Of a stretch of DNA of 64,000 nt, positions 9,001 through 50,612 are shown piece by piece. Source of the stretch: a virus. The notes under the pieces were generated by a model that saw only the letters and a list, made by a program, of their open reading frames with translations, had not been told where the DNA came from and searched no databases. Within the stretch, counting starts at the first letter, position 1, and each line of letters begins with the position of its first letter. The translations under genes were made by a program, and so were the position numbers. The stretch covers positions 32,001 through 96,000 of the IMG/VR virus record IMGVR_UViG_3300005563_000030; one strand, written 5' to 3'.

Positions 9001-10455
9001 AGTACCTAATGTTTCAGCCATACCAGTACCAAATGACTTTATGAAGTTGTTGGTAGTGGTAATATCTGGGTGATTATATTTTCTCTTATAGAAGTCATTG
9101 ACCCCTTTCTCAATCCAGTACTGAGAACCTTCCTCAAACATTTCTGAGCCAGATTCAATGAAGGCACTACCTACTTTACTATTAGCTATAGCTCTACCCC
9201 ATTTGGCTAATTTAGAACCTTTATCTACAGCTTCAAACAGGTCTATACTACCTTCTTTTAAGGCTATTTGAACACCTTGTTTTGCTTCAGCTTCTATAAG
9301 GTCTTTTGTAGCAGCTAATGGGCGTAACATATTACCCCATTGAATAGAGTTTGTTACAGCTAATAAAGCAGAGTTCATCAGGAAACGAGTGTTACCTGCC
9401 GCTCTGTTATTTCTATCAATCTTTTGATTTTCTTCGTAAGTAGGTATTCTACCATTCTCTTCATAGAACTGTTGTTGTAAGTCTTTATTCAACGCTCTAT
9501 AAGAGTCGATAGCTTCAAAGGCAGCTTCACCAATACCTGAAGTAATCATATTAGCTCCCCATAATCCTTTACGGAAAGCATAATTAAGTCTGTCAATTCC
9601 TTTTAATCCTTTTACAATATCATCTGCACTCTTAATAGAAGCCTTAAGGCCCCCAAGAGTATCTTCTCCAAGGTTGATTAGTTTACCTAATTTATATACA
9701 GCTTTGTTAATTTGCATAGCTGCAACAGGAACTTCACCAACACCACCAGTCATAGCACCAACAATAAGATCTTCAGCAACCGCACCACCAACGGCACCAA
9801 TTGTAAAACCTAAGTTTTCAAGTACTTTACCCCATCCATTACCTGAGTTACCAATGAATGGTGTCAAATTAGCAAATGGATGTTCACGTTCCCAGTTAGT
9901 CTCATAGTTTGGAAGATTCTTTTCACTCCAATCCATAAGATCAGTAGCCCAGTTATTTGTGGTGTTATCCCACATTTTATCAAGCTTACCCGCACCAACT
10001 GCACTAATCATATTAGGAATATCCATCATTGAGTTAGCGAAGCTACCTAACGCTTTAGTTCCTAATTTAGCAAAACGATTACCCCACTGATTAAGCCAGC
10101 TTTGGTTCTCTCCATACCAGTTCTCAAGATTCATATCATATGGATGATAACCACCAGACTCATTATTGCTATAACGCTCTGCCACCTTCTGATTAGTATA
10201 GTAAGGAGTACTTAAGAACTCTTGTTTTGCATTCTGGTTCTTAAGTGTATTAATATACAACGCATACATAGGGTTCACCTTACTTTGTCCATTTGGACCA
10301 GTAGGTGCAGTATTATCAAACAATAAATTAGGAGCTGTTGGAGGAGCAACATTTGGAAGATTATTAACTACTCTACCAGCTTCAGCATTTGGATCATATG
10401 TATTCTGTGGAATACTAGCTACTTGGCCCGGTTTGATGGGATCTTGTTGTGGCAT
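1..10455 (-). CDS. Giant virion-associated DNA-dependent RNA polymerase (crAss-like), C-terminus beyond the window edge; >3,480 aa, with internal zincin-like HExxH motif
   Basis: ATG at 10455 (MPQQDPIKPGQV...). In-frame motifs read by hand: LSGADFDIDKLF (~230-265), MFGVRIPSQDKHS (~340-380), QEYHEAFHAV (~4780-4810). The ORF track lists no closed minus-strand ORF here, consistent with one frame open to the edge. Confidence 0.9.
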   Translation of the reverse strand, partial: MPQQDPIKPGQVASIPQNTYDPNAEAGRVVNNLPNVAPPTAPNLLFDNTAPTGPNGQSKVNPMYALYINTLKNQNAKQEFLSTPYYTNQKVAERYSNNESGGYHPYDMNLENWYGENQSWLNQWGNRFAKLGTKALGSFANSMMDIPNMISAVGAGKLDKMWDNTTNNWATDLMDWSEKNLPNYETNWEREHPFANLTPFIGNSGNGWGKVLENLGFTIGAVGGAVAEDLIVGAMTGGVGEVPVAAMQINKAVYKLGKLINLGEDTLGGLKASIKSADDIVKGLKGIDRLNYAFRKGLWGANMITSGIGEAAFEAIDSYRALNKDLQQQFYEENGRIPTYEENQKIDRNNRAAGNTRFLMNSALLAVTNSIQWGNMLRPLAATKDLIEAEAKQGVQIALKEGSIDLFEAVDKGSKLAKWGRAIANSKVGSAFIESGSEMFEEGSQYWIEKGVNDFYKRKYNHPDITTTNNFIKSFGTGMAETLGTSEGWENSVYGLLGGAMYKGVEGAYYKLRGVDVHPDYKKQINNVLEGLNTNTLSGIFENKYGESVEAISIQKDLQKAAADGNVFAYKNYKHDQFVSFVISGIKQNKFETRMEQLQELKKLDNDEFKKTFGITASDENKKSVSDYVDAMVRNAEYINDVHKRVSRTFVNPFTLKGTGNYKNKEEKQKQDIINGKYAAYEEAKEDLVRTMSLSRDSANRTKALREQLSLRGGIGFPVEEAIQMVSEDGLKELKKKYKEQLAILNSLAKTQLTPDQVKSIKEEMSDIKRKFSQNKNISPEIYEKAEFLTSQLRATPETNKEKIKALQAKHDQIEDVLNEKDEKLQNAKYHMLVANFYSEIGRNKLAFYKNMGDDTITIDQLMHPDLVSELKGYAKDIWQLGMRNNVAIDRYARLTTKGGFKEQFEAIEKARKEAIETPVQLAPDQTQGQAAQQQAAFNTSQANAGQQTTNQPQANNTNTQQNPATQAPTVQQGQEGFVENKPVEDDSERARLVGYFMAAIEGKSKLDDDSLQVLGFQTIDELKLEDPNIDLKDYAMVTSLSGKKFYVPNTVVDQAKTFLEGVGSTSNQKTPSPNTPEQPDNQAGGPPVTPNTPPPVNEQSEFRTSDFMGKVWVAPDLKGTFNDAIFSGNKDQVVQNLSVTVRPLAPNYQEAYNRQQADQSFTQIPGFPGMYASRAPIDLSVSHNGAEIGKVAYPKRLLFKVGNNFVTIDRLTPEQYQQFTGKPAAQHAADVDEFNKQVAFTNYLALKFRNNNLQEYTLTPQELNELVDTVITYGELDLLERGQAPRFYSQVKHNTVSLPVANGNPINTTVIISIPKRLVEDTMVRERTDFMTPLYGANFYRTPGADDRMILDYLASSAQKLLDVNSRYIGLVMKPDGTIQPVALHPTTMTTQSKDEMLDSLKARSLESANANFIESTKEESTLKLLIGDREIYYKLPTDEAKNYNKQYNEELNNKLFISDPNGKVFYDLTLSPIGALRLDVHEPVSGYRSRVIIAPQKLATINTFDALVEAINKEVKKREEKDDVLKELGVTIAENNFKQSVLDDAEVDSADTLAASLIAATGPEVFKNGTMKFVPNEQNIQAAANKENRAATAQAAPERTEQGQPVPQPTQAPITPEEQEKNRRVGQALTGGNATTANTQDGRTFRIIRVNEQENQVLLDRADEQHWMPFNSITKISTADGQVLYEDVTNANVNPIEDLFGATPAVGGMFAETASVPVDQSGAPVTSETSTQAQEDQEGIAFPTVKDALNSVGIDYRVEGDTVQFFSMSTGEMMDLPGVSPKELAADMKLKVVEQQQPNNGAEFDFMRSDKNVKELNQLMDMEQAKMYLSSVLPSFIKTEDLETVINQIQQQGVGNPQTDVWGAYRNGIIYLNSQVPAVGQEYHEAFHAVFNILMSAKEQQELLKYATDQLYSQLKKEGKSIRDHIKEQKANGQWTNLSEKQATEKAAEEWMAEEFRKWNNKKKNAGPLQKLFDMIERFFKWLLRSGTQLDAVFNKINTGGYKYSNIASNSFTQETTDENTTQEFKFMLIPARPTQIAVGTGTRIINRNLDPRTSKQVIQNVAAYFEMYRKAGEYSKLTDSKLLDEILNDLQLTYNPNNIRYAGASQAQLSAIANSDENFIYSDEKSRKVIKDAAKKYINSMNYFEQFAENGLEEEEQDTGSPKTGYDNQTENIGGFSSLPGMLRHYIGFTSYPVTDRFGNTQTANGKPVIATIDAISVYYGLLRATANINDPVKFLQRMIRFADNNEQSRHFVEKFIKDTGLNEDVLFGENRIEANKNQALLEMVKKGFNKYRIDYVFTHYDAKKGQYVSYAANRKNVENVQFEKWSNNFIDGYAEMSEENQATVRRAIDRIRNTYFDPRRALRINDEELSQRVNEVRSILSSIGIQMSHDFVKYSLLSIGAKKFDELNKQYKAQGAELQFDDPQNIFISKSNYNYVQVMKIADEITLNRAFMDELSKTLTTNANPFFRRTKEEDEEAGVPDVAEEGTEGADVAMVTRILNVAKGNAFFDETVGESSFTTADNKVVFAHQDGTFNVKYSYQLRDANTRRQLREQGYREEASAAMDAYDAEWLTRNFLLNSADFEAVADNLQYQNIDGLRAVETNKQGQVITQEFRDQKEGVTYGSYSPREFFINNLNFYVSYKKIQKTGAGDIVTTPHLIRVLEASKTGATVNLPINLDVYREGTVTEKTLGIMLGEVEKEYNRIQRVQGEIGTLRDNIVENYHTGSFQEDGFTVNKGYRGLKFSDNMTALLTKATANLLERKARNGDALSDEDKATIKEEVKNALNKMVDDTMNLMVKEGIIKVGQNGDYNNVLLHRKFVVGDADLNLQSVSKNEHFKTNIGHVLLNDYINTLAYNQILHGDPALSLKNDGGIDAVKRAKGDNAAIVSIRTDLLAPELGITEAFTHSKVAIFKEPISADGTKIADAQMYTTVKGLRYTLWGLGRLSPRLAKFLDVLEDGGDIHNIEYTVKNERGEDIVKRFDGVFDDEKGILAWDEMTNSLKLVFKDGKSYFKMSVVVLQPDLTSYKDVKTGEWKPRPNWKTLDTLRRKMEADGIHFAAPESASKMMTLDVSKAADFSDLKGHLYDNNYFGLQTENPSNKLEITTPTQLLQLIDSEQSDNVQVVMSGVTKTIRQVKDEYQNAVLQKVSNSFDAALNEIYDITEFNDDLNKLISEGKVQPRLATFYKRVASTLESSGSDAQLLDFFSLDDNGNIRFNANLSAVKTKSQQLYLSYFSKSILSQKNPGYTVALFSGIDTKMMKRAKRVVDGRVVEWDYVTREHWDTNYNGVQSERVVTKEQVTEVGQLFQHELEHEVSEYDENGKPTGQYYSEFMLPAHFKELLGLPRDQPIPEAIAKMFGVRIPSQDKHSFISLRLVDFLPANLGSTGMFPKELIALSGADFDIDKLFITRYDFYMEKDKNGNTQFKKYGSATTSEEKWAEYKDWMGKNNKAVKGIVADIAEQDTDYQGYLTNQNPEDLAAEL

Positions 10456-41599: not shown

Positions 41600-43687
41600 T
41601 TACATTCTTGTTCCTAATGTGCGCATAGCATGTTGACTAGCTGCAAAAGGACTAGTTGATTTAGCAAATCCTGACATTGTCATAGCAAACGGAGAACTTA
41701 AGATTGGATTCTTTCTTTGATTGTCAGGTTTCTCAGGTTCTTTAATATTTATTATCGGATAATATTTATCAAGATGTCTAGCATAAGCCAGAGCGTGGCG
41801 GAAAGCCACAATGCGGTCGTAGTTACCTTCTTCAGGGTTGTATTTTATAATTTCTTGAAGTAATACAGGATCAAGAATACGAGTTACACCTAATTTATAT
41901 ATAGGTTCTCTTGTATCAGGGTGTGTACCCACTTGAATCTGTTCTTTACAATACTCAATCATTAGCGACATACAGTAGTTAATGTTTGGTAGTGTTGGAG
42001 ATAATCCATATATTTTACCACCTTGGTTAGCTCTGGTGTTTGGATTAATCTCTTTTGCAATGTTAAATCCTTGACCTAACATGTGTCCTTTATTCTTACG
42101 CTCAAAGTATTGAATAAATGTACCCGCAGCGTTCTCTGGAAAGCAGACGGCATTATAATATTCTAGTAGCATTTCTACTTGTTCATGCCAATCATTCATT
42201 GAGTTTGGACGTGAAGCTAGCGCAGCAACAGGCATGTCTTGATAGGTTTCTCCAGCCACATCTGTCATACGTTTCCATAGAACAACTGTACCTAAAGAGT
42301 CTGACCAGTCGGAAATGTCATTGTTGTAAGGGTCAGCTCCCGCAATATACAAACCTCGTGGTGCATTTGAGATAGGCTCTTCCCATATAACCACTGGACA
42401 ATCTTTTCCGAGATTCCCTTTGGTTGGAAATTCACTGATGGGTCTGTCATGAGATACTGCATAACTAGTTCTAACTTTTCCAGCCGAATCTCTGAAGAAT
42501 CTAACATATCTACCTGTAATATTATTTGCGTTTAAATAATCTAAGTGACTTCTAGCTGCTTCTATTGGGAATGGATTAATTGCATTAGATAAGAAACATT
42601 CTGCTGGAGTAAGTGGATAATACATTATCAACTTTTGGTACTCCACTTTATCAGGGTCTTTAGATTTCTCTTCGCGTTCTTTTAGAATGAGAGCCTTAGC
42701 TTTCTCCTTATCAGAAACCATCATAGGGATCTGATCTAAGTTAGGAGTAGCCCAGTCTATCTTCCCTTCTTTTCTGAGATAATCACCAAGTGTAGTGAGA
42801 TATTTACAGTCAATACGATATAATCCTGACATGAAAATAGCTGTCTCTCGTCCTGTCTCAGGATCAGTTACAGCTAATAAGTTGTTTGCACTAGGATTAA
42901 AGAAGAAACGTTCAGCATCAGCTCCTTTATCAAAGCTACCACCGGTTCCGAAAAGAAGAGGTACACATCTCCATCCGAACTTGGACTTAAATGCTGGTTT
43001 AGCAGCTTCAAATGATTGAGCAAAAGCAAATTTACCAACTTCATCGGTAGCATAGGCTTTCGCAGTAACACCCGCTGGACCTTCTGTTTTGTTACCTTCT
43101 GATACGTTACGAACAATTAAGTAAGACCAAACATGGTCATCACCACCTTTAGCTTTGAACCCTAAGCGGGTCATGTTCTTCTTAGTATCTTTATCTAGCT
43201 TTGGAATTTGTAATCCTTTCCAAAGATTCTTAATACCAAAATCAATCTTATCACGGATAAGTTGTAAGTCATCATCATTACCACCCACCACTACATTCTG
43301 TGTGTGTTCAAAGAGTTCAGCATGATAGCCCATATAAGAAGCCATAATCTCACTCTTTCCAAACTGACGCACTCCAATGTGCATATATCCTTTCTTCTCA
43401 ACACGACATTGTTCAAGATATTGACCTACTTCCCACTCATTATCTCTACAGGAAGCGAGCATTTTCTTTCTCTGTATATTACCATACTCATCCTCAACGT
43501 CATCACGAATATTCCAATGGTTTAAATGCCAATAGAGCCACCCCGATATATCTACATTATCGAGAGTGACTCCACCCATACACTTGTCTATTTCCCATTG
43601 AACTAGTTCTTCAAATTCAGGAGTACCTTCTACCGGAAGACTTTCCATCCTTGAAAAGAAGTCATTAATAGAATTAATCTTCAGCAT
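41600..43687 (-). CDS. terL: Terminase large subunit
   Basis: Walker A-like RQFGKS, Walker B ATDEVGK, FGTGG, nuclease YIAGADPY and NYDR motifs. Confidence 0.9.
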   Translation of the reverse strand: MLKINSINDFFSRMESLPVEGTPEFEELVQWEIDKCMGGVTLDNVDISGWLYWHLNHWNIRDDVEDEYGNIQRKKMLASCRDNEWEVGQYLEQCRVEKKGYMHIGVRQFGKSEIMASYMGYHAELFEHTQNVVVGGNDDDLQLIRDKIDFGIKNLWKGLQIPKLDKDTKKNMTRLGFKAKGGDDHVWSYLIVRNVSEGNKTEGPAGVTAKAYATDEVGKFAFAQSFEAAKPAFKSKFGWRCVPLLFGTGGSFDKGADAERFFFNPSANNLLAVTDPETGRETAIFMSGLYRIDCKYLTTLGDYLRKEGKIDWATPNLDQIPMMVSDKEKAKALILKEREEKSKDPDKVEYQKLIMYYPLTPAECFLSNAINPFPIEAARSHLDYLNANNITGRYVRFFRDSAGKVRTSYAVSHDRPISEFPTKGNLGKDCPVVIWEEPISNAPRGLYIAGADPYNNDISDWSDSLGTVVLWKRMTDVAGETYQDMPVAALASRPNSMNDWHEQVEMLLEYYNAVCFPENAAGTFIQYFERKNKGHMLGQGFNIAKEINPNTRANQGGKIYGLSPTLPNINYCMSLMIEYCKEQIQVGTHPDTREPIYKLGVTRILDPVLLQEIIKYNPEEGNYDRIVAFRHALAYARHLDKYYPIINIKEPEKPDNQRKNPILSSPFAMTMSGFAKSTSPFAASQHAMRTLGTRM

Positions 43688-44000
43688 TATTTCTCATTCT
43701 ATGAGGCACATCTCCACCACCACGTACTTCTTTTATGGCAGCAGCTTCTTTCTCACGAAGTTTTTCTACTACCTCGCACATAGCAAGGTATTCCTTCATG
43801 GTTTCACGTAGTGATTTTTGAATAGCCTCTTTAGTTTGTACTACAGCGTAATAAGCTCCACCATTTTTAGTTTTCATTAATTCCTTACGATCCTCTACTT
43901 CATTGTAGGGGTTATCTAGTAAGTATTGTTTCCAGCGAGCTAATTGTTCTTCTGCAAGTTCTAGCTCTGCTGATATGTATAAGTTTTTCTTAACAGCCAT
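43674..44000 (-). CDS. Hypothetical protein, candidate terminase small subunit
   Basis: Small helical ORF overlapping the terL start; ends in EVRGG. Confidence 0.4.
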   Translation of the reverse strand: MAVKKNLYISAELELAEEQLARWKQYLLDNPYNEVEDRKELMKTKNGGAYYAVVQTKEAIQKSLRETMKEYLAMCEVVEKLREKEAAAIKEVRGGGDVPHRMRNNAED

Positions 44001-44316
44001 ATGGTTTTACTTCAGTTACGCGATAATATTTAGTATTAAATTTCCTTACTTTGACTATTTTTCCATTATAGTAGTAGTCTTCTACCCAGTTTTTATTTTT
44101 CACAAAAAGTGGATCTGGTTGTTTTGGGAAGATTTGATAGTCTGTATTGATTTCATCTTTTTCAATTTCCATATCTTCTATATCTGAATAGAAGGAAGGA
44201 TCTTCAAGACGCATATCGTATTCGATAGCAAACTTCCCAATAGCCATCATAAACCCAGCATAGATAAAGTCATTATCCGTATAACTAGGTTTACACATTT
44301 CATGTATCTCTTCCAT
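43990..44316 (-). CDS. Hypothetical protein
   Basis: ORF track; overlaps the next gene start. Confidence 0.5.
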   Translation of the reverse strand: MEEIHEMCKPSYTDNDFIYAGFMMAIGKFAIEYDMRLEDPSFYSDIEDMEIEKDEINTDYQIFPKQPDPLFVKNKNWVEDYYYNGKIVKVRKFNTKYYRVTEVKPYGC

Positions 44317-44329
44317 TGGTTTTTATTTG

Positions 44330-44401
44330 AGCACATAGGAAGAATCGAACTTCCGCATAACTGTTTTGCAGACAGCGACCTTACCACTTGGCTATACGTG
44401 C
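44330..44401 (-). tRNA. trnC: tRNA-Cys(GCA)
   Basis: Cloverleaf; CTGT-CTGCAAA-ACAG anticodon arm; GTTCGATT T-loop. Confidence 0.85.
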
Positions 44402-44760
44402 TTATTTACGAATAGCTTTTTCTTAATAACATAATCGAATATCTTCTCATTTATAAATCCTGATAAGAAGGCTCTAGCTTCTCCATCATTTACATCCTTA
44501 TCTTCTAATATGTAATCTACTAAATGAGAAATTTCATGAGTTATTATATTTACATTTAAACTCTCTTCTGAAAAGAAGACATAGTAGGTATGAAAATTAT
44601 TTGGATTTATAGCCATTCCATGAAGATCATGGTCATCTTCTATATTAAATTCCCATTTCTCTCGCTTACTATATGAGTTTATCTTCTTACGAATGTCTTT
44701 GTCTATTATGACAATACACTTAAGTTGATAAACTTCTATCGGAATCACTAGTCTGAGCAT
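44392..44760 (-). CDS. Small zincin-like HExxH protein
   Basis: IITHEISH...GEARA; stop codon lies inside tRNA-Cys. Confidence 0.6.
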   Translation of the reverse strand: MLRLVIPIEVYQLKCIVIIDKDIRKKINSYSKREKWEFNIEDDHDLHGMAINPNNFHTYYVFFSEESLNVNIITHEISHLVDYILEDKDVNDGEARAFLSGFINEKIFDYVIKKKLFVNKHV

Positions 44761-44914
44761 CTTCTGATAAGTCTAAGATCATGAATTTATAACTTTCCAA
44801 AGGATACTTTGATTCTTCTTTAGGTTCACCAAATATAGCCTTTCTTGATTCAGGACTCATAAGTTCATAGAATAACCCCATAATTGCAGCCTGATCGTAT
44901 ATCTCTTCTTCCAT
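44720..44914 (-). CDS. Hypothetical protein
   Basis: ORF track. Confidence 0.4.
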   Translation of the reverse strand: MEEEIYDQAAIMGLFYELMSPESRKAIFGEPKEESKYPLESYKFMILDLSEDAQTSDSDRSLST

Positions 44915-44927
44915 GTAATTAGTTAAG

Positions 44928-45001
44928 TTGCGGGAGCGGGGATCGAACCCGCGTCATTTAGCTTATGAGACTAAGCTGGAACCTCTCCAGTCCACCCCGC
45001 A
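44928..45001 (-). tRNA. trnM: tRNA-Met(CAT)
   Basis: TTAGT-CTCATAA-GCTAA arm; GGTTCGATCC T-arm. Confidence 0.8.
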
Positions 45002-45005
45002 ATTT

Positions 45006-45218
45006 TTAATCTTCTAAATATTCTCTCCAAGTCTTCGGTTTGTATCTATCTATTGCTTCATCATTACGTTTCTTGAACTCCTCAGCAGAAATAATACCTA
45101 GCCGAAATCCCCATTCAACATTAGTGAGATACATATCTCTCATTAACATCTTCTCTTTGTTCTTTATGTGTGCTTGGGTCATCATAAAGAGTATATCGTA
45201 CTCCACTTTCTTTTCCAA
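45006..45218 (-). CDS. Hypothetical protein
   Basis: ORF track. Confidence 0.45.
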   Translation of the reverse strand: MEKKVEYDILFMMTQAHIKNKEKMLMRDMYLTNVEWGFRLGIISAEEFKKRNDEAIDRYKPKTWREYLED

Positions 45219-45363
45219 TTTCTTCTTGTAACATCATTTCTAAGAACCTCATTGCGTCATTGTACCTCGCAGTGAGTTGTTCAATAATATAATTCTCAGA
45301 CATACCTAAAGCTCTCCAATTATCAATTTCGTCTTGTAGGTAGTGGTTAACAATATTATTCAT
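45121..45363 (-). CDS. Hypothetical protein
   Basis: ORF track. Confidence 0.4.
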   Translation of the reverse strand: MNNIVNHYLQDEIDNWRALGMSENYIIEQLTARYNDAMRFLEMMLQEEIGKESGVRYTLYDDPSTHKEQREDVNERYVSH

Positions 45364-45577
45364 CTTCCTTAATATTATCTACTAACTCGTTCTCTAATTC
45401 ATCGCGATATTTCTCAAACTTCCTCAAAAGCTCTGTATCACTCCAGCCGTAACATCCTGTTTGTGGGCGAAGAATATGTACCATATGTTGCGCAATGGTA
45501 TACTGAGGAAACAATTCCACGATCTCTGCAAAGTTATGGAATATCTGTGACTTTGTCTGAATCTGTTTGTTGCTCAT
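45356..45577 (-). CDS. Hypothetical protein
   Basis: ORF track. Confidence 0.5.
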   Translation of the reverse strand: MSNKQIQTKSQIFHNFAEIVELFPQYTIAQHMVHILRPQTGCYGWSDTELLRKFEKYRDELENELVDNIKEDE

Positions 45578-45989
45578 TTTCTTGGTTTTTAAATGCGAAC
45601 CATTTAGGTTCCAGTGTTATATTGTTTTTTGTGTTGTACTCTTTTACGTTTGGTTTTGCACATCCGCATTCTGTTCCCGGATTGCAACATGATAATCCAC
45701 AATCTGATGATAATGATGATGTTTTTCTATTAATTGAACATCCACACATAACGCAATGCTCATCAATTCTGTTTGTTATATACCCATCACTAACTGCATT
45801 CGAGCTGCTGAACGGGCACGTCGAGCATATCAGTCTTCTCCTCACTATCTCCTGTTGTTCTTCCTCTGGTAACATCCCCAACTCGTTCTTCACTTGTGTT
45901 ATTGTCGCTTCCAAGATTGCTGGTGCGTTGCTCACTATTGTCGGCAGCAACGTCACGTACTCTACTAATCCTTTTAGTGTAATTTTCAT
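45534..45989 (-). CDS. Cys-rich putative zinc-binding protein
   Basis: RRLICSTCPF...HCVMCGC motifs. Confidence 0.55.
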   Translation of the reverse strand: MKITLKGLVEYVTLLPTIVSNAPAILEATITQVKNELGMLPEEEQQEIVRRRLICSTCPFSSSNAVSDGYITNRIDEHCVMCGCSINRKTSSLSSDCGLSCCNPGTECGCAKPNVKEYNTKNNITLEPKWFAFKNQENEQQTDSDKVTDIP

Positions 45990-46323
45990 AGAACTGTTTA
46001 GCTAATATATTTCTTTGTTTAAGAGCTTTTCTTAGCTTATCATAGTTTAATTCCAGAAGCAATTCAGTTGTTGATTGCTTATATCTGGTAGATTTTCGGA
46101 TATTCCTTATCTTTCTAATAAGAGTAATAATCATCTGGTCTACTTTACGCTTAGAAACTGTTATAGTTCCAATATGCTTAATAGAAACAGATGTATAGTC
46201 CATAGATGATAGAGCAGCTCTCACGCCAACCTTCCAGAAAAAAGCATTTACATCTTCTACAAGGTCAGGATCAAGGTTATTCTCTCTAGCTACCAACTTA
46301 GAAACTATATGAATATCCTTCAT
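45790..46323 (-). CDS. HU/IHF-like protein
   Basis: Helix-helix followed by VSIKHIGTITV strand pattern; crAss position near terminase. Confidence 0.5.
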   Translation of the reverse strand: MKDIHIVSKLVARENNLDPDLVEDVNAFFWKVGVRAALSSMDYTSVSIKHIGTITVSKRKVDQMIITLIRKIRNIRKSTRYKQSTTELLLELNYDKLRKALKQRNILAKQFYENYTKRISRVRDVAADNSEQRTSNLGSDNNTSEERVGDVTRGRTTGDSEEKTDMLDVPVQQLECS

Positions 46324-46664
46324 TAATTATTATCAATTTTAATAAGAACTCCCATAGTTGGAGTAAGCCCAAAGTCTAACTCTTTTCTAAGTGAGTATTC
46401 TTTACTGTCTACATTTCTAATCAGCATTCCAAATTTCTTCAACTTAGATAGAGTATTTTTAAGACTATCATCAGACTTTAGTATACCTGCATTTAGTATA
46501 AGGTCTTTAGTTTTTCTATTGATCTTATAAACCATAAAATATGCAAGTACTGTTAACTCTGTGTCTGAGAGCTTAACATTCATAAGTAAACAGAAGATAT
46601 TAATTAATACCTTAGCTTGTTCTACTTTACTATTGGTTTTCTTTTTTATCTTTACTAGTTGCAT
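46323..46664 (-). CDS. Winged-HTH (RepL-like) protein
   Basis: LSDTELTVLAY...SLKNTLSKLKKFGML pattern; ATG 46664 follows the TATATTTG promoter at 46673-46680. Confidence 0.5.
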   Translation of the reverse strand: MQLVKIKKKTNSKVEQAKVLINIFCLLMNVKLSDTELTVLAYFMVYKINRKTKDLILNAGILKSDDSLKNTLSKLKKFGMLIRNVDSKEYSLRKELDFGLTPTMGVLIKIDNN

Positions 46665-46875
46665 ATTCAGTACAAATATAGAGATATTATTGCAATTTAC
46701 CAAATTTATTTTATCTCCATCCCTTCTTCTCCAGAACTTTCTATTAGCTGCTCTCGCGAACAACGAATAGTAGGTGAGTCACTGAGCGTTACACTTCTGC
46801 TGCTCCGCGAAGTACGAAGCTACGAAAAATTTCTGACATTTTCATCAATTTCGTAAACTATTTTTTAAAATAAAT

Positions 46876-46898
46876 AAAAAAGCCCCAATTAAGGGGCT
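46876..46898 (-). terminator. Terminator closing tRNA operon 3
   Basis: AGCCCC-TTAATT-GGGGCT followed by TTTTT. Confidence 0.8.
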
Positions 46899-46902
46899 AT
46901 TG

Positions 46903-46974
46903 CACGGGATGATGGTCTCGAACCACCGACACAGGTTTTGGAGACTAGCATTTTACCAACTAAACTAATCCCGT
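46903..46974 (-). tRNA. trnW: tRNA-Trp(CCA), anticodon stem with two mismatches
   Basis: CTAGT-CTCCAAA-ACCTG; good acceptor, D and T arms. Confidence 0.7.
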
Positions 46975-46978
46975 AGGT

Positions 46979-47070
46979 AGCCTGCGTAATAAGATACTTT
47001 TCGCGTAGTCCCAGGTTTACGCTTGAAGGGTCAGGTAAATCCCACATATCTCCTATACTATTCTCAGGCT
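46979..47070 (-). ncRNA. Rod-shaped ~92-nt non-tRNA RNA inside tRNA operon 3
   Basis: AGCCUG/CAGGCU closing stem, AGAUA/UAUCU, UGUGG/CUACG and UUUAC/GUAAA helices separated by bulges. Confidence 0.45.
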
Positions 47071-47071
47071 C

Positions 47072-47142
47072 TGGGTGAAGTGCAGGATCGAACTGCTTCT
47101 CCAGCTTCACATGCTAGCGCTTTTCCAGTAAGCTATCTTCAC
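47072..47142 (-). tRNA. trnH: tRNA-His(GTG)
   Basis: CTAGC-ATGTGAA-GCTGG arm. Confidence 0.75.
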
Positions 47143-47144
47143 AG

Positions 47145-47215
47145 ATGCTCGTGATCGAATCGGACGACCTTCTCCGAGGTCAAAACTCGGTGTGATACCA
47201 ATATACCAACGAGCA
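47145..47215 (-). tRNA. trnQ: tRNA-Gln(TTG)
   Basis: CCGAG-TTTTGAC-CTCGG arm; atypical T-arm. Confidence 0.7.
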
Positions 47216-47223
47216 TTATATAG

Positions 47224-47296
47224 TGGGGTTCTCTGGTTACGATCCAGATCCTCCAGTTTTTCAGACTGGTGCTTCTACCAAGTTAGCTTGAACTCC
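47224..47296 (-). tRNA. trnF: tRNA-Phe(GAA)
   Basis: CCAGT-CTGAAAA-ACTGG arm. Confidence 0.85.
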
Positions 47297-47301
47297 AAAT
47301 G

Positions 47302-47375
47302 AGCCTGTGGTCGGAGTTGAACCGACAACCTTTCCCTTACAAGGGGACTGCTCCGCCAATTGAGCTACAGCAGGC
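47302..47375 (-). tRNA. trnT: tRNA-Thr(TGT)
   Basis: GTCCC-CTTGTAA-GGGAA arm. Confidence 0.8.
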
Positions 47376-47379
47376 ATTG

Positions 47380-47478
47380 TGCTAATGGGGTACGACTTGA
47401 ACGACAAGCGGAGGTTAATCCCTGATTCCGCGCCGGATAGACAATCCGGTATGTCTGCCAATTTCACCACCCATTAGT
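47380..47478 (-). tRNA. Atypical tRNA-like RNA: GTC (Asp) anticodon, long variable arm, 8-bp acceptor stem
   Basis: CCGGA-TTGTCTA-TCCGG arm; CTAATGGG/CCCATTAG acceptor; GGTGAAATTGGCAGAC D region; GCGGA...TCCGC variable arm. Confidence 0.6.
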
Positions 47479-47481
47479 GTG

Positions 47482-47553
47482 CGGGAACGGAAGGGGTCGA
47501 ACCTTCAACCTACCGGTTAACAGCCGGTTGCTCTACCATTGAGCTACATTCCC
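47482..47553 (-). tRNA. trnN: tRNA-Asn(GTT)
   Basis: ACCGG-CTGTTAA-CCGGT arm. Confidence 0.9.
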
Positions 47554-47605
47554 TGGTCGGCTCCGATTTTTTATACAGAACGTTGCCGAAGTAAACTGTT
47601 GATCG

Positions 47606-47681
47606 CCGACTATCACGGATTTGAACCGAGGATCTCCTCTTAGACAGAGAGGCAGGGACGACCAGACTCCCCTAATAGTCG
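47606..47681 (-). tRNA. trnD: tRNA-Asp(GTC)
   Basis: CCTCT-CTGTCTA-AGAGG arm (U at position 37). Confidence 0.8.
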
Positions 47682-47722
47682 AGGTGAAGGTTCCTTCCTG
47701 GAGTATACCTACAACTATGCAG

Positions 47723-47797
47723 TCAGGGTAGCTGGATTTGAACCAGCGAACACGTGCTTCCAAGGCACGCCCATATAGCCATCTGTGGAACACCCTG
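47723..47797 (-). tRNA. trnP: tRNA-Pro(TGG)
   Basis: CGTGC-CTTGGAA-GCACG arm. Confidence 0.85.
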
Positions 47798-47802
47798 ATA
47801 AT

Positions 47803-47832
47803 AAAAAACCCCCGGTGAAAACCGAGGGAAAC
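47803..47832 (-). terminator. Attenuator terminator of tRNA operon 3
   Basis: CCCTCGGT-TTTC-ACCGGGGG followed by TTTTTT; 5' arm also complementary to leader GATGAGGGAAC. Confidence 0.8.
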
Positions 47833-47858
47833 TTTCAATTATGACAAATTTTCTTGAA

Positions 47859-47945
47859 TTACTTATTTTGGCATAATGTTCCCTCATCGAGATCTTGTTG
47901 ATCCGGTGTGAAATTATTAAACGTATTATGCCAATTGTTAATCAT
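47859..47945 (-). CDS. Leader peptide 3, MINNWHNTFNNFTPDQQDLDEGTLCQNK
   Basis: Translated by hand; lies between promoter TATCTTTG (47950-47957) and the attenuator. Confidence 0.75.
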   Translation of the reverse strand: MINNWHNTFNNFTPDQQDLDEGTLCQNK

Positions 47946-47949
47946 AAAA

Positions 47950-47980
47950 CAAAGATAAGTAAAATATTTGAAACTACCAA
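47950..47980 (-). promoter_or_regulatory. Bacteroidota promoter for tRNA operon 3
   Basis: TTTG about 20 nt upstream of TATCTTTG. Confidence 0.75.
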
Positions 47981-47996
47981 ATATTCTTAAAAGAAG

Positions 47997-48080
47997 TCGA
48001 TGCAGAGAGATTTGAACTCCCATAGCCGAATGGCGACAGTTTTACAGACTGCTGATTTCAACCCACTTACCATTACATCG
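47997..48080 (-). tRNA. trnY: tRNA-Tyr(GTA)
   Basis: GCAGT-CTGTAAA-ACTGT arm; long variable arm. Confidence 0.8.
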
Positions 48081-48149
48081 AGATAGCTGTCTATTCCAGC
48101 TTGTCAAACCCTTTTTATTTCATACTACGTCGCCGAGATACACGACCTG

Positions 48150-48238
48150 CGGAAAGAAGAGGAACCGACCCCCACCCGATTTAACGAGACCTAGTTTTCA
48201 AGACTAGTCGGCGCTCCAATGCACCTGCTTTTCTTTCC
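48150..48238 (-). tRNA. trnS: tRNA-Ser(TGA)
   Basis: CTAGT-CTTGAAA-ACTAG arm; long variable arm; GGA...TCCG acceptor; atypical T-loop. Confidence 0.75.
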
Positions 48239-48242
48239 AGAG

Positions 48243-48328
48243 CGGAGAACAGTGGCCCTGATCCACATACGTTCGATGACGTACCACCTCTTTAGCAGAG
48301 AGGGCATACCCTAGTATGTCTATTCTCC
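48243..48328 (-). tRNA. trnS: tRNA-Ser(GCT)
   Basis: CCTCT-CTGCTAA-AGAGG arm; long variable arm; atypical T-loop. Confidence 0.75.
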
Positions 48329-48333
48329 AAATG

Positions 48334-48407
48334 TACTCCTAGTCAGATTTGAACTGACACTTGACAGATTTTAAGTCTGTTGACTCTCCCTGTTGGTCTA
48401 TAGGAGC
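48334..48407 (-). tRNA. trnL: tRNA-Leu(TAA), short variable arm
   Basis: ACAGA-CTTAAAA-TCTGT arm. Confidence 0.8.
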
Positions 48408-48483
48408 TGGTAGCTACGGTGAGATTTGAACTCACACTAAATAGTTTCTAAGACTATTGCCTCTCCCATTGGGCTACGTAGCC
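48408..48483 (-). tRNA. trnL: tRNA-Leu(TAG), short variable arm, encoded CCA
   Basis: ATAGT-CTTAGAA-ACTAT arm. Confidence 0.8.
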
Positions 48484-48490
48484 ATAAAAT

Positions 48491-48522
48491 AAAAAACCCC
48501 CACTTATGAATAAGCAGGGGGT
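48491..48522 (-). terminator. Attenuator terminator of tRNA operon 2
   Basis: ACCCCCTGCTTA-TTCA-TAAGTGGGGGT followed by TTTTT; 5' arm complementary to leader GCAGGGGG. Confidence 0.8.
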
Positions 48523-48547
48523 AAACTAAAAACGGAAAAAAGTATCT

Positions 48548-48631
48548 TTATATTCCGACAATAAGCCCCCCTGCCACAGGATAACTGAGACTAGATAAAT
48601 AGGAGAGTAAATATTGCTTCACGAATTTCAT
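48548..48631 (-). CDS. Leader peptide 2, MKFVKQYLLSYLSSLSYPVAGGLIVGI
   Basis: Translated by hand; lies between promoter TATCTTCG (48636-48643) and the attenuator. Confidence 0.75.
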   Translation of the reverse strand: MKFVKQYLLSYLSSLSYPVAGGLIVGI

Positions 48632-48635
48632 AACA

Positions 48636-48658
48636 CGAAGATAGGAAAACTTTTTCAA
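48636..48658 (-). promoter_or_regulatory. Bacteroidota-type promoter for tRNA operon 2
   Basis: TATCTTCG (one mismatch to TAnnTTTG) with upstream TTG. Confidence 0.6.
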
Positions 48659-48801
48659 TTTTCCAAATTTTCATTTATTGAATAAGTACGATCACATAAA
48701 TCGCAGTAATAAACTGGTCCTAGATTTTCTCCGAACACTCCAATCTCATCTATAATTATGAATTGTTCATTACATTCAGGACATCTGTTTTCTGATTTCA
48801 T
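48655..48801 (-). CDS. Small zinc-ribbon protein (48 aa)
   Basis: MKSENRCPECNE...YYCDLCD; true start follows tRNA-Ala. Confidence 0.55.
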   Translation of the reverse strand: MKSENRCPECNEQFIIIDEIGVFGENLGPVYYCDLCDRTYSINENLEN

Positions 48802-48803
48802 AG

Positions 48804-48873
48804 TGGACACAGTGGGAATCGAACCCAAAAGTTCTCCTTGCAAGGGAGACTGCCTACCGTTGGCATCTGGCCC
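48804..48873 (-). tRNA. trnA: tRNA-Ala(TGC)
   Basis: TCTCC-CTTGCAA-GGAGA arm; G3:U70. Confidence 0.75.
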
Positions 48874-48878
48874 AGAAG

Positions 48879-48951
48879 TAGGAAGTCTGAGAATCGAACT
48901 CAGGAGTCCACTTTGTAAGAGTGGCATATTAAACCTCTGTATGAACTTCCT
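48879..48951 (-). tRNA. trnV: tRNA-Val(TAC)
   Basis: CCACT-CTTACAA-AGTGG arm. Confidence 0.8.
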
Positions 48952-48954
48952 ATG

Positions 48955-49027
48955 TCGCTGAGGGAAGAGTCGAACTTCCAGTCTTACACGTATCAGGCGT
49001 CTGCGTTAACCATTACGCTACTCAGCG
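48955..49027 (-). tRNA. trnI: tRNA-Ile(GAT)
   Basis: ACGC-CTGATAC-GTGT arm. Confidence 0.8.
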
Positions 49028-49029
49028 GG

Positions 49030-49101
49030 TTGGCTCTAAGGGGGTTGAACCCTTATCCTTCTCGTTATGAGCGAGCTGCTCCACCTTTGAGCTAAGAGCC
49101 G
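49030..49101 (-). tRNA. tRNA with CAT anticodon, probably Ile2 (lysidine)
   Basis: CTCG-CTCATAA-CGAG arm; Ile2-like CTTAGCTCA 5' region; next to tRNA-Ile; leader 1 contains an ATA codon. Confidence 0.7.
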
Positions 49102-49106
49102 ATATG

Positions 49107-49178
49107 TACTCTCGAAGGGTTTCGATCCCTCTTCTACACCTTGAAAGGGTGTCATCCTAGCCACTAGACGACGAGAGC
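49107..49178 (-). tRNA. trnE: tRNA-Glu(TTC)
   Basis: ACACC-CTTTCAA-GGTGT arm. Confidence 0.85.
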
Positions 49179-49227
49179 TGGTGTACAGACTATCACTGAC
49201 CTTGGTAACTGACTTTCACAGATTTTG

Positions 49228-49298
49228 TGCGCTACTGGGGAGTCGAACCCCACCCCTCTGATTGGAAGTCAGATAGACTACCGAAATCCTTGTAACGC
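49228..49298 (-). tRNA. trnG: tRNA-Gly(TCC)
   Basis: TCTGA-CTTCCAA-TCAGA arm. Confidence 0.8.
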
Positions 49299-49305
49299 AT
49301 ATAAG

Positions 49306-49378
49306 AAGAGCTGGAGGGATTCAAACCCCCGACGTTCTGTTTAGAAAACAGACATTCTGTTCCCTGAATTACAGCTCT
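49306..49378 (-). tRNA. trnR: tRNA-Arg(TCT)
   Basis: TCTGT-TTTCTAA-ACAGA arm. Confidence 0.75.
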
Positions 49379-49379
49379 G

Positions 49380-49453
49380 AGGACTAGGAGCGAGTCGAAC
49401 GCTCATGTTCCCGCTTCGTAGGCGGGAGCTCTATCCAGTTAAGCTACCAGTCC
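49380..49453 (-). tRNA. trnR: tRNA-Arg(ACG)
   Basis: CCCGC-CTACGAA-GCGGG arm. Confidence 0.85.
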
Positions 49454-49462
49454 TTATTTATG

Positions 49463-49533
49463 TACCCCCGCACGGTAACGATCCGTGTTCTACTGGTTAA
49501 AAGCCAGTAGCTTCACCTTAAAGCTTCGAGGGT
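49463..49533 (-). tRNA. trnK: tRNA-Lys(TTT)
   Basis: ACTGG-CTTTTAA-CCAGT arm. Confidence 0.8.
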
Positions 49534-49535
49534 AT

Positions 49536-49576
49536 AAAAACCAAAACCCCCAAGCTTCTTTAAGGCTCAGGGGTTC
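49536..49576 (-). terminator. Attenuator terminator of tRNA operon 1
   Basis: CCCCTGAGC...GCTTGGGGG followed by TTTTGGTTTTT; 5' arm GAACCCCTGAGCC complementary to leader GGCTCAGGTGGTTC. Confidence 0.8.
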
Positions 49577-49604
49577 GATGTTATGACACACATTAATTAA
49601 GTCA

Positions 49605-49682
49605 TTAGCAAATAGAACCACCTGAGCCACATTTGACAATGCGCTCTGCTCCTCTACCCGCTATAATGACTAATAAACTCAT
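49605..49682 (-). CDS. Leader peptide 1, MSLLVIIAGRGAERIVKCGSGGSIC
   Basis: Translated by hand; lies between promoter TATATTTG (49700-49707) and the attenuator. Confidence 0.75.
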   Translation of the reverse strand: MSLLVIIAGRGAERIVKCGSGGSIC

Positions 49683-49699
49683 TTCTTTAAATTATAATA

Positions 49700-49724
49700 C
49701 AAATATACGAAAACTTTTTTACAA
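49700..49724 (-). promoter_or_regulatory. Bacteroidota promoter for tRNA operon 1
   Basis: TATATTTG with upstream TTG. Confidence 0.7.
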
Positions 49725-50117
49725 TTCCAAATCTTCTTCATCACCTTCTATACTTTCGTCTTCAGGAATGTCATCTTCATAATCCAAAGGTGTGCAATCC
49801 ATAATCTGTACACCCATTTGTTCCATATACAATTCCATGAAATCTGAGAAACCTGCTTTTACTATTAAAGAACTCTCAGCCTTTCTGAAATGAATTGTGA
49901 CATGATCCTTTTCTTTAGCTCTATTAAAGTGATGAATATCTTTTAAATCAAATACTACAGGACCATATTCATGCACAATATCCATCATAATCATGCTATC
50001 TTCTGGACCTTCATCTCCATTAATGAGACGGTTTAATTCTGCTTCTTCCCGGTTAGCTTGACTATTACGAGGAGCAAGCTCCGACCATCTCGCTAACATT
50101 TTTACAATTGTACTCAT
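49719..50117 (-). CDS. Hypothetical protein with acidic C-terminus
   Basis: ORF track. Confidence 0.55.
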   Translation of the reverse strand: MSTIVKMLARWSELAPRNSQANREEAELNRLINGDEGPEDSMIMMDIVHEYGPVVFDLKDIHHFNRAKEKDHVTIHFRKAESSLIVKAGFSDFMELYMEQMGVQIMDCTPLDYEDDIPEDESIEGDEEDLEL

Positions 50118-50314
50118 TTTTCTAAGTTTAATATTTTTGAAAGATCACCATCTGTTTTCTCTATAATCTCAATTAATGTATTAATATTTGATGAAGAAAT
50201 AGGCTCTTTCTTTCCATTAAAGTAATCGAGGTAATCCTCTCTAGTAAACGCACACCATTTATGGGTGTATATATTATAGTGGAATAACCACTTATAAAGG
50301 TTTGTATTATTCAT
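50114..50314 (-). CDS. Hypothetical protein (start uncertain; shorter than ORF-track call)
   Basis: WLFHYNIYTHKWCAF core; the upstream part of the ORF looks non-coding. Confidence 0.45.
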   Translation of the reverse strand: MNNTNLYKWLFHYNIYTHKWCAFTREDYLDYFNGKKEPISSSNINTLIEIIEKTDGDLSKILNLEK

Positions 50315-50612
50315 ATTTTGCTTATTCATATGATATTCAAGTAGTTCTAAAGACTTTCTATAAATATTGTAATTCATATACAAATGTACACAGAATAGTT
50401 GAAAACTCCAAATAAAAAAGGAAGTATTTCTACTTCCTACTGTACTATTAATAAATACATATCTTTTACACACTGTTCAGTGAGGGTGAATGGGTGGCAA
50501 TCCCCCACTCTAGTAAGTCTAAATAGCTTTCTCTCTTTGTCATAATCCTGTATTAGATAGTGTGTGTAATTGTCATCAATTACTACATCATTAATTCCTG
50601 CCTTTAGTTCAT

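Follow-up and report, generated by a model that had tools for sequence, protein, structure and literature searches.

How phages control the tRNA genes that they carry, and why they carry them at all, are open questions. The locus described here poses the first of these in a concrete form. The DNA analysed is a window of 64,000 nt (the whole stretch under study) inside a virus record of 125,101 bases. On its minus strand, between tRNA-Ala and tRNA-Leu, the row of tRNA genes is interrupted by a short element, which we call attenuator 2. What would an ORF built around Leu, Ser and Tyr codons, and followed by a terminator, do in front of tRNA genes for the same three amino acids? The parts of the element all lie on the minus strand, in the order promoter, ORF, codon run, antiterminator, stop codon, terminator and tRNA genes:

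48636..48667, minus strand: promoter P2 (TTTG at 48667-48664, 20-nt spacer, -7 type 8-mer at 48643-48636)
48548..48631, minus strand: leader ORF 2 (ATG at 48631, stop codon ending at 48548; 27 codons plus stop)
48581..48613, minus strand: regulatory run, codons 7-17, with Leu, Ser and Tyr codons only, from both Leu and both Ser boxes
48566..48576, minus strand: antiterminator segment, codons 19-22, 11 nt pairing with the terminator 5' arm
48486..48522, minus strand: intrinsic terminator 2 from a consensus scan (hairpin 48522-48496, T tract to 48486; -14.0 kcal/mol)
48408..48483, minus strand: tRNA-Leu (anticodon UAG), ARAGORN default and Rfam
48333..48407, minus strand: tRNA-Leu (anticodon UAA), ARAGORN default and Rfam
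48242..48328, minus strand: tRNA-Ser (anticodon GCU), ARAGORN default
48149..48234, minus strand: tRNA-Ser (anticodon UGA), relaxed ARAGORN only, weak Rfam match
47996..48080, minus strand: tRNA-Tyr (anticodon GUA), last gene of block 2, ARAGORN default and Rfam

Reading the codons off 48613-48581 returns, as codons 7-17, the eleven Leu, Ser and Tyr codons named in an earlier note on this DNA, and with them the sampling of both Leu boxes, both Ser boxes and Tyr that it had described. All 11 codons of the run specify one of these three amino acids and all five downstream anticodon classes are sampled. With the residue frequencies of the same phage, the probability of an 11-residue run drawn from Leu, Ser and Tyr in a 26-residue peptide has an upper bound of 1.3e-7. 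The window has 438 ATG-initiated ORFs of 15-60 codons over all six frames, and leader ORF 2 is the only one with such a run of at least 11, the next best reaching 7. Leader ORF 2 and the terminator are 25 nt apart. Just upstream, at 48655-48792 on the minus strand, a 45-codon ORF with a zinc-ribbon-like set of two CxxC pairs starts right after tRNA-Ala and ends inside P2; nothing in PHROG matches it, and the corresponding place in a related locus, L003, lacks it.

The Leu/Leu/Ser/Ser/Tyr genes that the same note had placed downstream are there: four are default ARAGORN calls, and the fifth, Ser(UGA), found at the relaxed threshold, can be aligned with the Ser(tga) genes of three relatives, in which the anticodon loop is invariant and a stem covaries. 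The remark that this operon groups exactly the amino acids whose bacterial tRNAs are class II holds for the amino acids, a long variable arm being typical of bacterial tRNA-Leu, and fails for the two Leu genes themselves, which are 75-76 nt as called and therefore have no long variable arm of their own. Their homologues in L003 (of the genes at 48333-48483 in the window) measure 81 and 86 nt. Over the whole record, Rfam gives 20 tRNA matches above cut-off, all on the minus strand at 44330-49533 of the window, and cmscan over 43500-50500 at E <= 0.1 lists 21 tRNAs, one weak tRNA-Sec (the Ser tRNA) and one weak plastid-UTR on the other strand.

Some members of this gene row stand apart. An element at 44927-45001 (minus strand), unassigned by ARAGORN ('ct'), aligns with tRNA-Met(CAT) of L003 and has a CAT anticodon loop, and is therefore an ordinary CAT-anticodon tRNA. 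Between tRNA-Asn and tRNA-Thr lies a conserved tRNA-like element of 96-102 nt with a long extra arm (window 47381-47476, minus strand; L003:6275-6376). In the window ARAGORN reads it as Asp(gtc), in L003 as nothing but an intron-bearing Glu. Rfam has no match for it, and its acceptor and T arms are conserved between the two phages while its middle is not. The 98-nt spacer from tRNA-His to tRNA-Trp (46975-47072, minus strand) carries no tRNA call; the two genes adjoin in L003.

Also in the window, and likewise on the minus strand, are genes for the terminase, the portal and the major head protein. An ORF of more than 3,485 codons on the same strand (1-10455) runs off the window edge, with ORFs of 1,993, 1,125 and 843 codons nearby.

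Attenuator 2 has two sisters, each ahead of another block of tRNA genes:

49540..49731, minus strand: sister attenuator 1, before Lys, Arg, Arg, Gly, Glu, Met, Ile, Val and Ala (49533-48804)
Parts of attenuator 1, minus strand: promoter 49731-49700; ORF 49682-49605; run 49670-49632; antiterminator 49628-49614; terminator 49579-49540
47809..47981, minus strand: sister attenuator 3, before Pro, Asp, Asn, Thr, Phe, Gln, His and Trp (47797-46902)
Parts of attenuator 3, minus strand: promoter 47981-47950; ORF 47945-47859; run 47939-47892; antiterminator 47887-47880; terminator 47828-47809
46881..46898, minus strand: terminator closing the tRNA region after tRNA-Trp, from the terminator consensus scan

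The 25-codon ORF of attenuator 1 holds a 13-residue run drawn solely from Val, Ile, Ala, Gly, Arg, Glu and Lys, and the 28-codon ORF of attenuator 3 a 16-residue run with all eight amino acids of its block and no other. Scored against their own blocks, the longest runs of attenuators 1, 2 and 3 are 13, 11 and 16 residues; against the other blocks they do not exceed 4, and none of the other 435 of the 438 small ORFs reaches these values. Since the same device stands before all three blocks, together they would report on 19 amino acids in three channels. The tRNAs of the window without an attenuator-type leader are Cys and one CAT-anticodon tRNA; among the relatives introduced below, the same is found for Asp/Ile/Ile/Ala in L045 and L043.

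Relatives of this phage allow the match between leader and tRNA block to be followed through differently arranged genomes. Several direct routes gave little: a blastn comparison of the leader region with phage records returned tRNA-Leu as the sole match, a search with the 132-residue product of a neighbouring gene found no relatives, and contigs from four public DNA runs yielded identical pieces of the phage and unrelated tRNA-like matches, with no informative variants. The public runs listed as containing this DNA included no RNA run. The terminase of the window phage shares 25-31% identity with those of crAss-like and Cellulophaga phages and 44.6% with that of Leptolyngbya phage Lbo-JY46, and a terminase profile retrieved 50 IMG/VR loci, 10 of them with three or more tRNAs by ARAGORN. 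L023 and L044 were left out as near-duplicates of L021 and L043, with identical tRNA lists, and L020 has four tRNAs behind an HNH-like ORF at the contig end and no leader. Nine related phages contributed 18 further leaders (12 in seven IMG/VR loci, three in Lbo-JY46 and three in Cellulophaga phage phi17:2, one of the latter with a GTG start). The full set comprises 21 leaders in 10 phages (the window, L003, L021, L031, L041, L043, L045, L049, L053 and L054).

The grouping of tRNA genes differs among these phages, with arrangements such as Pro-Gln-His-Arg-Leu-Ser-Tyr, a 13-amino-acid block starting with Ala-Asp-Asn-Trp, or Pro-Thr-Phe-Gln-His-Arg-Trp, and the composition of each leader follows its own block. 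A run of at least six residues from the block's own set is present in 19 of the 21 leaders, and in 15 the run holds every amino acid of its block, one run spelling as many as 13 different ones. The matched run lengths sum to 234 over the 21 leaders, against 77.4 (sd 14.6, maximum 156) for random assignments of leaders to blocks; none of 100,000 random assignments reaches 234, and when leaders are permuted within phages only the true assignment, out of 1,728, reaches the observed sum. The peptide sequences themselves are not conserved; what is conserved is the composition rule. Every run is in frame with a start codon (ATG for 20, GTG for one), and an in-frame stop codon follows past the antiterminator.

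Three leaders depart from the rule. In L049, a leader suited to Leu/Arg/Pro/Ser/Tyr/Gln/His nevertheless has Pro, Val and Gly genes downstream, which looks like a rearrangement. The first leader of L003 includes Val, Ala and Asn although no such tRNAs were called in its block, and the Leu/Ser leader of Lbo-JY46 uses AGT although Ser(gct) was not called. ORFs resembling HNH or homing endonucleases lie in or beside some tRNA blocks of the relatives (L045:6717-7101; L053:3562-4389; L020:322-505), and such insertions split blocks that still share one leader. In PhiCrAssBcn18, a crAss001-like Bacteroides phage with 21-22 tRNAs, the leader-plus-terminator unit was not found, and the device is therefore not general in Crassvirales. 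That phage (L056, OQ221553.1 at about 69440-69470, minus strand) has a -7 type promoter followed after 4 nt by a mini-ORF of four codons, Met-Ile-Arg-Arg, without a terminator; its Arg codons are AGA and it lies directly before tRNA-Gln and tRNA-Arg(tct).

The match extends below the level of the amino acid. Where a block encodes a single Arg tRNA, the Arg codons ahead of the antiterminator belong to the box of that tRNA in nine of nine cases (CGN with ACG, AGA with UCU), and the two blocks with both Arg tRNAs use both Arg boxes; the rule does not extend to Arg codons past the antiterminator. All seven blocks that encode the two Leu tRNAs have leaders drawing on both Leu boxes, and the corresponding count for the two Ser boxes is six of six, while the sole block with Leu(UAG) alone uses only CTN. 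Because the codon box follows the isoacceptor encoded downstream, this pattern points to sensing of tRNAs and not merely of amino acids.

Codon use within the boxes is also unusual. C-ending codons make up 28 of the 84 family-box codons of the leader runs, compared with 7.8% in the long ORFs of the same loci (p=1.6e-11), whereas T-ending codons are depleted (11 of 84, compared with 49.8%). Such a bias sets the runs apart from ordinary coding sequence. CTC, rare in genes, is the commonest CTN codon in the runs. In the three runs of the window alone, a preference for wobble-read codons was not significant (12 Watson-Crick-read codons of 39, against 17 expected). The excess of C-ending codons could stem from selection for RNA pairing or for codons that are decoded slowly; C-ending codons should be those read worst by the phage's own U34 tRNAs. 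Because the codon box follows the encoded isoacceptor and C-ending family-box codons are over-used, the data suggest a run that may be tuned to the slowest-read codons or to host tRNAs that the phage does not encode.

The pairings required for an RNA switch are present. The pairing between leader and terminator proposed in the earlier note proved exact over eight nucleotides, 48574-48567 being the reverse complement of 48521-48514 in the 5' arm. The antiterminator segment (48576-48566), which starts 5 nt past the run, pairs with this arm at -20.4 kcal/mol, a value equalled by none of 500 shuffles, and among the 21 leaders that of attenuator 2 ranks first as partner of its own 5' arm. In 17 of the 21 leaders the best duplex with the 5' arm is better than 95% of shuffles; in the four weak cases 43, 66, 71 and 214 of 500 shuffles are as good. 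The duplex starts 2-17 nt past the run in 18 of 21. For nine arms the own leader is the best of the 21 partners and for 14 it is among the top three, and the energies of the own pairs sum to -284.4, against -190.5 (sd 10.5) for permuted pairs, with none of 20,000 permutations reaching the observed sum. Gly-rich tails of the peptides coincide with G-rich antiterminator segments. Between attenuator 1 and its L003 homologue, a compensatory three-way change in antiterminator, 5' arm and 3' arm keeps both pairings. Part order, codon match and the two pairings, conserved with covariation, can all be read directly from these sequences.

The behaviour of the switch was modelled on transcripts of 18 leaders cut before the 3' arm, with pairing of the 5' arm to the leader at P>0.5 as the criterion; these truncated-transcript models took the place of equilibrium folding of full-length leaders with masked ribosome sites. 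In the truncated transcripts, a ribosome masking the middle of the run leaves the antiterminator formed in all 18 leaders, a ribosome at the last run codon in five of 18, and a ribosome on the antiterminator segment in one of 18 (partly by construction); with no ribosome it forms in 11 of 18. For attenuator 2 the modelled probability is 0.74 for a mid-run stall, 0.23 when the ribosome is at the last run codon and 0.30 when it sits on the antiterminator segment. Full-length equilibrium folding gives a ribosome-dependent switch in just five of 18 leaders, and in attenuator 2 the antiterminator then wins even when the ribosome has reached the stop codon, where the terminator has P=0.02. Since the antiterminator wins at equilibrium, termination at attenuator 2 would need a well-timed ribosome on codons 15-27.

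Attenuators 1 and 3 also have the trp-like 1:2 pairing. Attenuator 2 has no clear 1:2 (anti-antiterminator) pairing, and its free RNA forms the antiterminator; of the five features of a leader-peptide attenuator that were tested by sequence it has the other four. Such 1:2 pairing is not universal among leader-peptide attenuators. As the antiterminator wins unless it is covered by a ribosome, attenuator 2 looks, in these models, to be on by default and off only when a ribosome follows the polymerase closely.

The promoter sets the geometry of this leader. The -7 element of P2 (48643-48636) has one mismatch to TAnnTTTG, and over 43 nt P2 is 79% identical to the promoter of attenuator 1. Of 18 leaders, 10 have the motif TTTG, 18-21 nt, TAnnTT(N)G directly upstream; in its strict form the motif occurs eight times in the window, against 1.85 expected, seven of the eight on the gene strand. 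A scan for sigma-70 promoters gave no site at the leaders, which a Bacteroidota-type consensus fits instead. The TTTG/TAnnTTTG motif fits the housekeeping promoter of Bacteroidota, and the host may belong to that group, although the nearest named relative, Lbo-JY46, is recorded on a cyanobacterium. The claim that the ATG stands only 4 nt past the -7 element agrees with the coordinates, the 8-mer ending at 48636 and the ATG lying at 48631. A spacing of exactly 4 nt is seen in four of the 10 leaders with the motif, and the first phi17:2 leader makes a fifth case. An mRNA with almost no 5' leader would fit this spacing.

On this evidence, attenuator 2 probably controls its phage tRNA block by ribosome-mediated (leader-peptide) attenuation of transcription. 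This had been the reading of the earlier note, and it has gained support from the sister units, the leaders of the relatives (18 in all), the codon-box match and the complementarity of each arm to its own leader. From the arrangement of the parts we infer a start site, translation of the leader, coupling of ribosome and polymerase, and the direction and size of the response, along the following lines. A host-type RNA polymerase would initiate at P2 and make the nearly leaderless mRNA, and a ribosome would translate the 27-codon ORF as the polymerase advances. If Leu, Ser and Tyr codons are decoded fast, the ribosome would stand over the G-rich codons 19-22 when the terminator is made, so that the hairpin could form and transcription stop before the tRNA genes. 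If a tRNA reading the run is scarce, the ribosome would wait in the first two thirds of the run and leave the G-rich segment free; this segment could then pair with the 5' arm of the terminator and let the polymerase read through into Leu, Leu, Ser, Ser and Tyr. The new tRNAs would speed translation of the leader and turn the block off again, closing a negative feedback loop.

Could a leader of this kind sense the same tRNAs and act at a step other than termination? Ribosomes on it might gate the access of an RNase or the folding of the first tRNA, and so affect tRNA processing or transcript stability, with the hairpin mainly ending the upstream block. Indeed, neither the stretch from block 1 to P2 nor that from block 2 to P3 contains a terminator, so transcripts arriving from upstream would be stopped by each hairpin too. 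In two relatives (L021:2584-2708; L031:5515-5643), moreover, a lone tRNA-Glu gene comes with a -7 type promoter of its own and a small Glu-rich ORF reaching into the 5' half of the tRNA gene, with no terminator. This suggests a terminator-free mode, and in these two loci translation may gate the folding or processing of tRNA-Glu. Each 5' arm, however, is specifically complementary to its own leader just past the run, for which a terminator at an operon end has no need, and the promoter lies upstream of the hairpin, so that a constitutive stop would leave the block untranscribed. We therefore regard an action on processing or stability alone as unlikely for attenuator 2.

A ribosome-free switch is also conceivable, since the run is a codon string for the downstream tRNAs and their anticodons might pair with it directly, in the manner of a T-box specifier. 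We consider this very improbable: no T-box or other riboswitch family was matched at E <= 0.1, the runs keep the frame of an ATG (or, once, a GTG) and are closed by a stop past the antiterminator, five leaders place the ATG exactly 4 nt past the -7 element, and up to 13 amino acids in one run go beyond what one tRNA-binding fold would accommodate. Still less credible is the view that the terminators are leaky constitutive spacers and the small ORFs either chance or small proteins with roles of their own. It could draw on the hydrophobic or Gly-rich tails of the peptides and on the relative whose leader misfits its tRNAs, but it leaves without explanation a composition that tracks the tRNA set in 19 of 21 leaders and that no random assignment equalled, the fit of the Arg box in every one of nine cases, and a composition rule conserved where peptide sequence is not; and the Gly-rich tails are where the G-rich antiterminators lie.

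If ribosome-mediated attenuation is the correct reading, a tRNA block would be on only when its own codons are decoded slowly, giving direct feedback on tRNA supply, and the grouping of large tRNA sets into blocks would be accounted for. The three leaders might even serve jointly as a gauge of decoding capacity with isoacceptor resolution and three channels for 19 amino acids, by which the phage detects the loss of tRNAs during infection and re-supplies the affected class alone, from its own genes, until recovery. This wider proposal is tentative and, in our estimate, rather doubtful. The loss could come from host anticodon nucleases, from other tRNA-cutting defences or from the phage's own shut-off of its host, and the device would connect the tRNAs of phages with the contest of defence and counter-defence over tRNA cleavage. 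It would also provide, in a natural and compact form that can be programmed, a measure of how fast chosen codons are decoded, and the known range of classical attenuation would grow to include nearly leaderless mRNAs and phages of Bacteroidota-like hosts. Since the element is present in cultured phages (Cellulophaga phi17:2 and Leptolyngbya Lbo-JY46), the proposed attenuation can be tested directly.

Described cases of leader-peptide attenuation concern genes for amino-acid biosynthesis and for synthetases. No account of leader-peptide attenuation of tRNA genes was found in a literature search of titles and the beginnings of abstracts, nor in passages of PMC4833913, and passages of a genome-wide attenuator survey (PMC2965389) do not mention tRNA genes.

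The closest known systems differ from the phage units in what they sense or in what they control. Among the Rfam leader families, none (Leu_leader, His_leader, Thr_leader, Trp_leader and others) was matched by cmscan over 43500-50500 at E <= 0.1, and the T-box model gave no match in the same range and at the same threshold. T-box riboswitches bind one uncharged tRNA directly through a conserved fold. As the phage units would, they respond to tRNA status and act on an intrinsic terminator ahead of genes with roles in translation, but they do so by direct tRNA binding, whereas in the phage units the translated ORF would be the sensor. The aminoacyl-tRNA synthetase genes pheST are controlled by a leader-peptide attenuator. 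The same has been reported for the synthetase gene hisS, in the part of the survey consulted (PMC2965389). These attenuators resemble the phage units in applying leader-peptide attenuation to the translation apparatus and not to amino-acid synthesis; they serve a synthetase for one amino acid, whereas the phage units would act on tRNA genes that cover 3 to 13.

Attenuators of enterobacterial amino-acid operons include trp, his, leu and pheA as well as the multivalent leaders of ilvGMEDA (Ile/Leu/Val) and thr (Thr/Ile). They share with the phage units a promoter, a short ORF with a run of regulatory codons, and an antiterminator and terminator with a common arm; in the enterobacterial operons the position of the ribosome reads the supply of aminoacyl-tRNA, as it would in the phage units, and in both a leader may respond to more than one amino acid. 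The phage units differ in covering 3 to 13 amino acids per leader, in a codon box that follows the downstream isoacceptor, and in being phage-borne, with a predicted, nearly leaderless mRNA behind a Bacteroidota-type promoter. Above all, the enterobacterial attenuators regulate biosynthetic enzymes, whereas the phage units would regulate the tRNAs themselves, so that the product feeds back directly on the sensor.
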